This document shows, in pieces, positions 29,791-31,998 of a DNA stretch of 59,931 bases (positions are counted from its first letter, which is position 1; every line of letters starts with the position of its first letter). Location of the stretch: positions 1 through 59,931 of the forward strand of contig JALUUW010000018.1 in the NCBI GenBank assembly GCA_027021195.1. Direction: 5' to 3'. The translations under genes and the position numbers were made by a program. This DNA is from Candidatus Pacearchaeota archaeon (lineage in GTDB: Archaea > Nanobdellota > Nanobdellia > Pacearchaeales > GW2011-AR1). The notes under the pieces are model-generated. The model did not search any database. It was given only the letters and a program-made list of their open reading frames with translations, and was not told the DNA's origin.

Positions 29791-29883
29791 TCACTTCCCG
29801 GCTTTAATTTCCTTAAAGCTTGTATACTTCCACAAAGCCTTTGGAATCTCAATGCTTCCATCTTTCTGCTGGTTGTTCTCCAT
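29791..29883 (-). pseudogene. Detached duplicate of the serS 3' end (encodes MENNQQKDGSIEIPKALWKYTSFKEIKAGK-stop in the serS frame)
   Basis: The first 50 nt are a 49/50 copy of serS codons at 30764-30813. The in-frame stop is at 29791-29793. Confidence 0.6.
29834..29883. repeat. 50-nt direct repeat, copy A
   Basis: AAAGCCTTTGGAATCTCAATGCTTCCATCTTTCTGCTGGTTGTTCTCCAT, with 1 mismatch to copy B. Confidence 0.9.
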
Positions 29884-29896
29884 TTGACATTTTGGT

Positions 29897-30718
29897 TTAT
29901 TTTGCTTTTGTTTTCTTCAGCCAAAAAAGGCATGAGGCAGAGATGCAAAGTAATCCAATTCCGATTAAAGATAAGACTGATAGGGGAGCATTTGCTCCGA
30001 CAACTGCTCCGCTCATGAGTTTTTTATCTGCAAAAATCACTGATATCCCAAGAAGCCCAAAAATAATTGTGGCCTGAGGCGTCGCAAGATATTTTTCAAG
30101 GCTTTTTTTTGCAAGATTAATCATTGCATCATAGGCATCAGCAGTTCTTTGTTTTACTTTTTTATAAGTATCTTTTCCAATTTCCTCATTAGAATAGAGA
30201 ATATCTGCAAACGCCCCGTATTGCCTTCCCATTTGAACATCTTTTGCAGTCTCCATCATTTCAGGATATAACTGCATAAGTTCCGGATTTTTGCCGATCT
30301 CTTCAAGCAGTGCTCCGGCAGTTTCTTTTTTGCTCAAGTATTCTTCAGAACTATTGCCTCTTTTTTCAATTCCCAGAATTTTTCTTAGCCACGACTGCCT
30401 CGACTTTCCAACAATCGCTTCCAAACTTCCTTCCAAAAGCCTTTTTCCCTTTTCATTAAAGGGTTTCCTCTCAATCACATATTTTACTATATGTTCCTGA
30501 AGGGATTGCCATTGCTTTTTCTGAGCTAATTTTCTAAATCTCGGATTTGAAGTGTAATTTTCTATTTCTTCTTGAACTCTCTCTGTTTCAAGATACCTTG
30601 CTAATTGGTCAGCCTCAATATCCAATCCATGGGTCTTTCTTAAATAATCAAGCCCGTATAAAATTGCCCCATTAATGGACTTTATTCTCTCTTGTCCTTT
30701 TTGTTTTTTTCTTCTCAT
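29897..30718 (-). CDS. Hypothetical protein, helical with a 2-TM C-terminal anchor (273 aa)
   Basis: Its ATG overlaps the serS stop (ATGA, 30715-30718). No motif recognised. Confidence 0.55.
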   Translation of the reverse strand: MRRKKQKGQERIKSINGAILYGLDYLRKTHGLDIEADQLARYLETERVQEEIENYTSNPRFRKLAQKKQWQSLQEHIVKYVIERKPFNEKGKRLLEGSLEAIVGKSRQSWLRKILGIEKRGNSSEEYLSKKETAGALLEEIGKNPELMQLYPEMMETAKDVQMGRQYGAFADILYSNEEIGKDTYKKVKQRTADAYDAMINLAKKSLEKYLATPQATIIFGLLGISVIFADKKLMSGAVVGANAPLSVLSLIGIGLLCISASCLFWLKKTKAK

Positions 30719-31998
30719 GTTTTTTTAACCTTTATATCCTTTTTTCCCATCATGTAAGGAATTAAAGCCTTCGGAATCTCAATGCTTCCATCTTTCTGCT
30801 GGTTGTTCTCCATAAGTGCGATTAGTGCCCTTGGTGTTGCTATGACAGTGTTGTTAAGGGTGTGGGCAAAATACCTCTGGCCCCTGCCTTCCACTTTTAT
30901 ATTAAGCCTTCTTGCCTGGGCCTCTTCCATGTTTGTCAGAGAGCCAACCTCAAAATATTTTTTTTGCCTCGGGCTCCAAGCCTCAACATCGCATGATTTT
31001 GCCTTTAAGTCTGCCAAATCTCCTGAACAGCACTCCAAAACCCTCACAGGAATATTCAATGTGGTGAAAACATCAATAGTGCATTTCAGCATTTTGTCAT
31101 ACCATTTGTAAGACTCTTCTGGATTGCATACAACAACCATCTCCTGCTTATTGAATTGGTGAACTCTGTAAAATCCCTTCTCTTCAATTCCATGGGCTCC
31201 AATCTCTTTTCTGAAGCACGGAGAAAATCCAGTCAGCCTGTAAGGAAGCTCTTTTCCATTCAGTGTCCTGTTAATAAACATCCCAATCAGGGAGTGCTCA
31301 GAAGTCCCTATAAGATACAAATCCTCGTCTTCAATCTTATACATCATGTTTTCTATTTCCTCAAAGCTCATAACTCCCTCAACAACTCTCTTTCTTATCA
31401 TTAAAGGAGGCTCTATATACTCAAACCCTTTCTTTACCATATAGTCTTTTGCAAAATTAATCATAGCAGCGCTTAGCAAAGCCAGCTCTCCCTTAAGGTA
31501 ATAGAATCCCTTTCCTGAGACTTTTCTTGCAGTGTCAAAATCAACTCCTCCAAGCCTCTCAGCAAGCTCTGCATGATTGAATATCTCGTATTTTGGAGCT
31601 GCAGGCTTTCCAATTCTCTTGACCTCAACATTTTCAGACTCGTCCCTGCCTATAGGAACAGACTCGTGAATTATATTTGGTATTCTGTACATTGCTTTCC
31701 TTATCTCATCCTCAATCTTTTTCCTCTTTGACTCCAGCTTCTCAATCTTTTCCGGAATCTCTTTTGCCTTTTTCATCTCTTTTTCAGCATTTTTTCCTGC
31801 TTTTTTCAATTCATTGATTTTTTTAGAAATCCTGTTTCTTTCACTCCTTAGAGAGTCTTCCTGATGCTTTATTTTTCTCCACTCCTCGTCAAGCTTTCTT
31901 GCTTTGTCAACCAAAGGAAGTTTCTCATTTTGAAACTTTTTCCTTATATTCTCTTTAACAAGCTCTGGATTTTCCCTTATCAGCTTTATGTCAATCAT
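30715..31998 (-). CDS. serS: Seryl-tRNA synthetase
   Basis: N-terminal coiled-coil arm, class II motif FRKEIGAHG, GTSEHSL, canonical C-terminus ALIPYMMGK. Confidence 0.92.
   Translation of the reverse strand: MIDIKLIRENPELVKENIRKKFQNEKLPLVDKARKLDEEWRKIKHQEDSLRSERNRISKKINELKKAGKNAEKEMKKAKEIPEKIEKLESKRKKIEDEIRKAMYRIPNIIHESVPIGRDESENVEVKRIGKPAAPKYEIFNHAELAERLGGVDFDTARKVSGKGFYYLKGELALLSAAMINFAKDYMVKKGFEYIEPPLMIRKRVVEGVMSFEEIENMMYKIEDEDLYLIGTSEHSLIGMFINRTLNGKELPYRLTGFSPCFRKEIGAHGIEEKGFYRVHQFNKQEMVVVCNPEESYKWYDKMLKCTIDVFTTLNIPVRVLECCSGDLADLKAKSCDVEAWSPRQKKYFEVGSLTNMEEAQARRLNIKVEGRGQRYFAHTLNNTVIATPRALIALMENNQQKDGSIEIPKALIPYMMGKKDIKVKKT
30764..30813. repeat. 50-nt direct repeat, copy B (inside serS)
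   Basis: Identical to copy A except T/C at the 9th position. The spacing is exactly 930 nt. Confidence 0.9.

Follow-up and report, generated by a model that had tools for sequence, protein, structure and literature searches.

A single-gene cassette between two copies of a serS segment in a Candidatus Pacearchaeota archaeon, and how it may have entered

How does a gene come to lie between the end of serS and a second, detached copy of the last coding bases of that same gene? The question is raised by a 59,931-nucleotide (nt) stretch of DNA from a Candidatus Pacearchaeota archaeon (GenBank assembly GCA_027021195.1, contig JALUUW010000018.1, positions 1 to 59,931), hereafter the window. In this stretch, the gene for seryl-tRNA synthetase (SerRS) is followed by a single gene for a 273-amino-acid (aa) protein, which we call the cargo gene, and then by a repeat of serS sequence that runs to a stop codon of its own beside a convergent radical S-adenosylmethionine (SAM) gene. 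The genome compared is a metagenome bin of 802,904 bases in 79 contigs with 36% G+C. Its gene content is archaeal, with RFC and FEN1 along with proteasome and exosome subunits, and homologues of its SerRS are labelled Pacearchaeota, Nanoarchaeota or DPANN at source. We consider it very probable that the arrangement arose by an insertion into an ancestral junction between serS and the radical SAM gene. The route of entry is a less certain matter, and it is weighed below against several alternatives.

The duplicated serS segment, its two tails and the insert

The segment present on either side of the cargo gene is 50 nt long. A repeat search reproduced the direct repeat reported in the first-pass annotation, with identity at 49/50 positions (98%) and a spacing of 930 nt, and blastn of both copies against the whole genome returned exactly two copies and no third. 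The only mismatch, T/C at 29842/30772, is silent and falls in a Pro codon (CCA/CCG). In 17 relatives, the homologous 50 nt of serS match the window copy at just 31-38 of 50 positions (mean 35.7), so codon-level conservation cannot account for the near identity of the two copies. Given this divergence among relatives and the uniqueness of the pair in the genome, the copies must share a recent origin. Translation agreed with the earlier placement of copy B inside serS, where it codes for MENNQQKDGSIEIPKAL (codons 395-411), and with that of copy A, which continues in frame to a stop at 29791 and reads MENNQQKDGSIEIPKALWKYTSFKEIKAGK-stop. Both copies carry GAG (Glu) in DGSIEIPK, whereas E occupies this position in 0 of 119 other listed SerRS homologues; the two are therefore copies of one lineage. 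A 5-bp inverted repeat within the segment, TGGAA-N9-TTCCA, was rejected as a candidate recombinase core site because it is too short.

Beyond the repeat the two copies part company. The present C-terminus of SerRS is ...MENNQQKDGSIEIPKAL followed by IPYMMGKKDIKVKKT, and detached copy A is instead followed by WKYTSFKEIKAGK; at the DNA level the present and displaced tails are dissimilar. Comparison of 120 close SerRS homologues gave 101 with a tail like PYMxGKKxIE and 15 with one like WKYTGFKEIK, an example of the latter being the homologue P0075, which ends ALWKYTGFKEIKAKK. By this comparison, both tails of the window are normal SerRS C-termini for the family. The pattern x-[PK]-Y-[MT]-x-[GF]-K-x-I is kept in both, on which basis SerRS is predicted to work with either tail. 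The first-pass annotation had described convergent stops with a 3-nt gap between the old tail and the radical SAM gene. The two stops do adjoin, at 29791-29793 and 29786-29788, with a gap of 2 nt in place of 3. The 30-codon leftover at 29791-29883 is a gene fragment, not a gene, and annotation should treat it as such.

The insert itself measures 880 nt, to which the 50 duplicated nt are added, and it contains nothing beyond a replacement serS tail (46 nt plus the stop codon), one gene and a 13-nt spacer. The cargo start overlaps the serS stop in an ATGA, as first described. Given this overlap there is no visible room for a promoter of its own, and the cargo gene appears promoterless. Scans for RNA families, promoters and terminators around the insertion site yielded nothing relevant. 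The insert has no terminal inverted repeats, the longest inverted match being 8 nt and off the ends, and no recombinase or transposase gene. No integrase lies near it, PF00589 matches in the genome being confined to contigs C3 and C49/C51, where two tyrosine recombinases are encoded (C3:71241-72044 and C49/C51). The earlier statement that the insert has no recombinase is thus upheld, since the cargo protein has no match to any Pfam or NCBIfam family and no integrase is nearby. An AlphaFold (AF2) model of the cargo protein, with a predicted local distance difference test (pLDDT) score of 81, is all-helical and ends in hydrophobic helices at residues ~214-235 and 248-272. Together with a family-wide alignment (A1), the model bears out the two-helix C-terminal membrane anchor proposed from the sequence; compared with the PDB it gave no fold match at E<1.

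The layout expected of an empty site was found in a related genome, G345, which by FEN1 is the nearest of ten relatives tested (78%). There (contig C3, locus L118), the serS stop is followed after 3 nt by the convergent stop of a radical SAM gene 64% identical to that of the window, and beyond it lie homologues of the window's winged helix-turn-helix (wHTH)-like gene and small membrane-protein gene, in the window's order minus 930 nt. The radical SAM gene is rare, with a presence in 7 of the 401 genomes of the order. It also occurs in G227, where serS (...VLWPYTNFKEIKAGKKRD) is followed by one additional gene and then by the radical SAM and wHTH genes. From the G345 layout we conclude that the tail adjoining the radical SAM gene is the original end of serS and that the rest is insert. 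In the first-pass annotation, the 3' end of serS was proposed to have received an insertion that came with a substitute coding end, and attention was drawn to relatives in which serS would end directly at the radical SAM gene; such a relative exists at genus distance, and its layout supports the proposed insertion.

Upstream of serS, the order conserved in relatives is S10, Na/H-TrkA, a ~220-aa membrane protein and serS. In the window this synteny is broken only by a 3.5-kb IS6-like cargo transposon, whose genes are a DDE transposase (34332-35270), an N6/N4 DNA methyltransferase (32639-33448) and two that are unassigned. SerRS of the window is 79% identical to P0007, the closest SerRS in the protein database, and 56% identical to that of G345, which groups with the SerRS of G016, G005 and G008 at ~68%. 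From these sequence relationships, serS itself seems to have been exchanged in the lineage of either the window or G345. Such an exchange, taken with the transposon upstream and the cassette downstream, would make the locus a recombination hot spot. Coordinates of all features are collected in Table 1.

Table 1. Features of the serS region, in positions of the window
Feature	Coordinates	Strand	Basis or comment
Replacement serS tail, IPYMMGKKDIKVKKT + TGA	30715-30763	minus	PYMxGKK type; tails of 120 SerRS homologues compared
Displaced original serS tail, WKYTSFKEIKAGK + TGA	29791-29833	minus	WKYTGFKEIK type; translation; same type in P0014, P0016, P0075
Repeat copy B	30764-30813	minus	Inside serS; attL in case of site-specific insertion
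Repeat copy A (detached)	29834-29883	minus	attR in case of site-specific insertion
Cargo gene, 273 aa	29897-30718	minus	Open reading frame (ORF); ATG overlaps serS stop (ATGA, 30715-30718)
Spacer, 13 nt, cargo stop to copy A; right end of insert	29884-29896	minus	No attC-like or inverted-repeat structure
serS, 427 aa, intact	30715-31998	minus	Pfam PF02403 (Seryl_tRNA_N) and PF00587 (tRNA-synt_2b)
Radical SAM gene, 285 aa, native neighbour convergent with serS	28931-29788	plus	PF04055
wHTH-like gene, 281 aa, synteny anchor	27995-28840	minus	G345 homologue 64%
Membrane protein, 97 aa, synteny anchor	27659-27952	minus	G345 homologue 55%
IS6-like cargo transposon between serS and conserved upstream neighbour	32033-35552		Pfam and synteny

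Comparable footprints at serS and at other gene ends

We searched for the SerRS C-terminus across the same 401 genomes. In G395 (loci L097 and L098; C24:21300-23604 and C9:2894-4101), a gene for a 299-aa membrane protein starts 1 nt after the serS stop and opens a 2.1-kb insert of three genes, the other two encoding a CBS protein and a 211-aa protein; 0 of the 3 match a recombinase family. After the insert stands a decayed old tail, which reads ..EGIIS-stop-IEMTKALWGYKGFKEIKAKN-stop, has an 18-nt exact match to the live tail and as a second SerRS tail ends ..KALWGYKGFKEIKAKN-stop. This insertion is older and lies, in a different genus, at the serS 3' site also hit in the window. In G407, 198 nt from the serS 3' end, stop included, recur as a detached copy (92% identical) in mid-contig at C18:~155399-155596 (L095), far from the intact serS (C24:19169-20455, L100). 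This fragment may mark where a large insertion ends on its far side, or may be an attachment (att) site carried by an element. Near it lie, among others, a gene of the RimK-like ATP-grasp type by Pfam and an ORF that looks dUTPase-like by eye; those of the nearby genes that were tested gave no integrase-family match.

Other second matches did not hold up as detached tails. G359 has an additional serS, interrupted and close to the end of a contig, and in G454 the match reflects a contig break. The serS 3' ends of G010, G255, G481, G517 and G535 also fall at contig breaks; these were considered as hints of repeats and set aside, their number being about what bin fragmentation would lead one to expect. 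In G255 (C39 end, C26 end and C30 start; L101-L103), the assembly forks ~30 nt past the serS stop into two downstream sequences, and the sequence common to both has TTCAATTCCCGGCCCGCGCA at its end, resembling the 3' portion of a tRNA.

Comparison of the archaeon's genome with itself revealed two further mini-cassettes with a duplicated gene end. One, a 743-nt cassette at C21:843-1649, carries, on the minus strand, a gene for a MazF/PemK-like toxin (892-1272), with a small ORF upstream of it; in its 32-nt repeats (31/32 identical), the end of a neighbouring 181-aa gene is duplicated, namely its last nine codons with the stop (..MLSITGKKK-stop). In relatives, the homologue of the 181-aa gene is convergent with the same methyltransferase gene with no ORF >=60 aa between them, and therefore with no MazF-like gene there. 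The other, a 643-nt cassette at C3:1080-2072, holds two small overlapping genes (82 and 104 aa) between 175-nt repeats (174/175 identical) in which the first 11 codons of a 199-aa gene and the region upstream of it are duplicated. Judged by eye, this gene pair resembles a toxin-antitoxin pair of the DUF2283/DUF4258 type. The genome also contains a 52-nt G+C-rich direct repeat (90%) at C2:43-94 and 6878-6928, around 6.8 kb in which we recognized by eye a radical SAM-like ORF, a 63-aa Cys/Tyr/Ser-rich peptide (..CYSSGTGCYSDGCYSPSSCVDCYSVD) and other small genes. This region may be a repeat-flanked peptide-modification island.

The cargo protein belongs to a small family with a patchy distribution in DPANN archaea. 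It comprises 57 clusters at 50% identity, all of ~255-300 aa, that share the motifs PFNEKGK and LEGSLE and, in alignment A1, a two-helix C-terminal membrane anchor with TGxVIG. Near-full-length matches occur in roughly 37 of the 401 genomes, and a paralogue 30% identical to the cargo protein is encoded on contig C9 of the same genome. The first-pass annotation had suggested that homologues be examined for flanking duplications at gene 3' ends. Repeats comparable to the 50-nt pair flank the homologue in 0 of 29 loci, and none are present at loci where the homologue stands just behind MCM; taken as a whole, the family is therefore not one of mobile genes flanked by repeats. The usual context of its members (loci L035-L062) is a fixed trio, in which the gene lies between those for a ~490-aa protein ending ..ELGGQRxxGSRMSGxxME, one example of which has a weak match to the AP_endonuc_2 TIM-barrel Pfam family, and a ~285-aa protein whose N-terminus is basic and which contains a nucleotidyltransferase domain.

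Routes by which the cassette may have entered

Our preferred reading, to which we give about an even chance of being correct, is that the cassette entered as a small circle through a single reciprocal crossover in the 50-bp serS segment. Before the event, serS would have ended ...PKALWKYTSFKEIKAGK-stop, 2 nt from the convergent radical SAM stop. The circle, of ~930 bp, would have carried a copy of the 50-bp segment beside a serS-type tail of its own, plus the cargo gene. A Campbell-type crossover confined to the shared segment would have integrated it in the last ~100 bases of serS, with the enzyme supplied in trans either by host homologous recombination or by either of the genome's two tyrosine recombinases, whose genes lie on other contigs. 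As a result, serS would be intact with the tail of the cassette, the cargo gene would join the serS transcript via the ATGA overlap, and the old tail with the second 50-bp copy would be shifted 930 nt downstream. The order seen in the window, namely serS body, repeat, new tail, cargo gene, repeat, old tail and neighbour, is the expected product of a crossover with such a circle; the circular intermediate, the enzyme and the donor are what we infer behind it. Because a genuine SerRS tail stands in register at the start of the insert, simple duplication of a target by a staggered cut is excluded, and the DNA of the insert would have come from behind a serS elsewhere. The cassette would accordingly have stood behind serS in another genome, and since its tail is foreign yet genuine SerRS, it would move between homologous serS ends. 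It would keep its own tail and re-sample the 50-bp segment from each host at excision and integration, a behaviour that fits the locus because the repeat copies are near-identical and lineage-specific and the tails are unrelated at the DNA level.

Several observations weigh against entry as a circle from another serS locus. The empty-site comparator G345 stands at genus level, with the other serS tail type and the more divergent SerRS noted above (56% identical). No strain-level empty allele was found, either among database SerRS, none of which is >79% identical, or among metagenome contigs of the Joint Genome Institute (JGI) in exact and degenerate scans with the 50-nt segment. A donor was likewise missing from the loci compared: the cargo gene is adjacent to serS in 0 of 29 relatives' loci with a family member, and no cargo-family gene lies behind serS on the serS contigs of P0019, P0073 and P0091, which have the most similar new tail, or on that of P0007. 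The closest cargo homologues, those just behind MCM and without flanking repeats, are just 34-36% identical. Nothing connects either tyrosine recombinase to the serS site. Finally, the three repeats found in this genome differ in length (32, 50 and 175 nt) and in sequence, which argues against one site-specific enzyme and fits the joint of an illegitimate recombination equally well.

In the main rival reading, which we rate as less likely, linear donor DNA entered through one in-register homologous crossover and one illegitimate joint, by homology-facilitated illegitimate recombination or replicative template switching. The donor would be a related archaeon with a native arrangement of serS and the 273-aa gene. 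It would have crossed over with recipient serS at ...CCNAAGGCTTT (the in-register point is also given as ...AAGGCTTT), and its other end, 13 nt past the cargo stop, would have been joined illegitimately 50 nt upstream, so that the recipient's own 50 nt were duplicated. The Glu codon in both copies and a single mismatch lying 9 nt from the boundary between repeat and new tail fit such a duplication of recipient sequence with a short donor patch; the varied repeat lengths are as for joints without a fixed site, and the ATGA overlap suggests that the new tail and the cargo gene were long contiguous in a donor. Yet neither the 401 genomes nor the contigs of the closest SerRS contain serS followed by the 273-aa gene, the cassette ends tight on one gene at both sides, and the serS 3' end was hit again in G395 and G407, which suggests a preferred site over a random joint. 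Unlikely, in our assessment, is a remnant of a larger integrase-bearing element, a provirus or plasmid that entered by attP x attB recombination and then suffered deletions. Its att-like geometry and replacement tail would match archaeal elements integrated in protein-gene 3' ends, and a 50-bp repeat is within the known range of archaeal att sites (PMC6563490). We rate it low because repeats still identical at 49/50 positions make the event recent, and yet the insert is a single intact gene tightly packed between a 4-nt overlap and a 13-nt spacer, with no pseudogene debris. Furthermore, neither the G395 insert nor the tested genes around the G407 fragment include a member of a recombinase family, and the C21 and C3 cassettes are too small for an integrase gene.

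An assembly artefact is very improbable. It would require that a 50-nt word common to two co-assembled molecules, for example an empty-site chromosome and an unrelated molecule, threaded them together, as might happen in a metagenome bin of 79 contigs. However, the copies differ at one base and hence are not collapsed; contig ends overlap by ~131-164 nt, from which the final assembler word is inferred to be well >50 nt and to span the junctions; a real molecule with the cargo 3' end followed by a serS fragment would still be needed; and comparable serS 3'-end fragments occur in the independently assembled G395 and G407. We find it hardly credible that the 273-aa protein is itself the mobility enzyme, a homing-endonuclease-like ORF product that cuts serS, its ORF then being copied in along with the donor tail sequence beside it. 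Fungal mitochondrial mobile ORFs share the order of new tail, ORF and displaced old tail, but the cargo protein matches no recombinase family and no nuclease family such as LAGLIDADG, GIY-YIG, HNH or PD-(D/E)XK, its all-helical model with membrane helices matches nothing in the PDB at the threshold used, and most members of its family sit in the fixed three-gene context without repeats. Two further classes of element do not fit. A DNA transposon or insertion sequence (IS) would not lack terminal inverted repeats at its ends (the match is <=8 nt) and a transposase, nor be flanked by a duplication of 50 nt, and the cut-and-fill duplication of a transposon cannot explain an insert that begins with a homologous serS tail. 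An integron cassette is countered by the mere 13 nt between the cargo stop and the repeat and by the lack of a nearby integrase.

The serS cassette among known systems and its meaning

In its workings the insert resembles both an integrative element flanked by att sites and a Campbell insertion, yet we class it with neither. Campbell-type insertion-duplication is mainly a laboratory outcome obtained with suicide plasmids and hundreds of bp of homology. As at serS, it leaves the homologous segment duplicated on either side and spreads the differences between donor and recipient over the two copies; unlike it, the serS case would involve just 50 bp of homology, and the C21 cassette 32 bp. Cis-mobilizable elements (CIMEs) and other integrase-less, att-flanked derivatives in bacteria have att-type repeats and no recombination gene of their own, and can be mobilized in trans. 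The serS cassette shares their att-type bounds, the lack of a recombination gene and possible movement in trans. For a CIME there is a known autonomous element, in its own or a related strain, that uses the same att site; here no autonomous partner with a serS-derived site turned up, and the three cassettes use three unrelated repeats. Fungal mitochondrial mobile ORFs at gene 3' ends, such as that of Allomyces atp6, encode homing endonucleases; they too supply a new C-terminal segment and an inserted ORF and leave a displaced copy of the native 3' end, but the serS cargo is a predicted membrane-anchored helical protein with no nuclease signature. Integron cassettes resemble it as promoterless single-gene units expressed from an upstream promoter, and differ in that the serS cassette has no evident attC and no attI/intI platform and is flanked by a duplication of a host gene.

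The nearest parallels are in archaea, where integrated elements are known to insert in the 3'-distal region of protein genes and to supply a new tail and stop codon, and where crenarchaeal att sites measure 29-69 bp (PMC6563490). Integrative elements of Sulfolobus and Thermococcales, described in 2019 (PMC6563490), are like the serS insert in their direct repeats of att length, a tail and stop supplied by the insert, displacement of the old end and an empty site in a relative. They are unlike it in being several kb or longer and in encoding a tyrosine recombinase (or a Cas1 casposase). With 880 bp, the serS insert is about ten times smaller, and it consists of one promoterless gene with no element-encoded recombinase. 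A search of full-text literature returned no description of such cassettes in DPANN archaea, an absence that holds for the texts searched and is not proof of novelty.

DPANN archaea combine very small genomes with highly variable accessory genes, and their route of gene gain is poorly understood. The serS locus provides a clean and recent case in which an essential aminoacyl-tRNA synthetase gene took up a single further gene and stayed intact, with none of the machinery encoded in the insert, and in which the replacement tail serves as a marker of origin at another serS locus. The second insertion at this site, found in a different genus, and the matching footprints around toxin-antitoxin cassettes of this genome point to a recurrent process. 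Collectively, the footprints elsewhere suggest a common, undescribed route of gene gain in these archaea. A still broader proposal, which we advance only as a rather unlikely generalization, is that across DPANN archaea bare cassettes of one or two genes without a recombinase are inserted at the ends of resident genes, of which 30-200 bp become duplicated, the serS cassette being one that carries the fossil gene tail of its previous host and so would show that cassettes move from one genome to another between homologous gene ends. If this is true, such a cassette would be a homology-guided mobile unit whose sole recognition sequence is a borrowed piece of its target gene.

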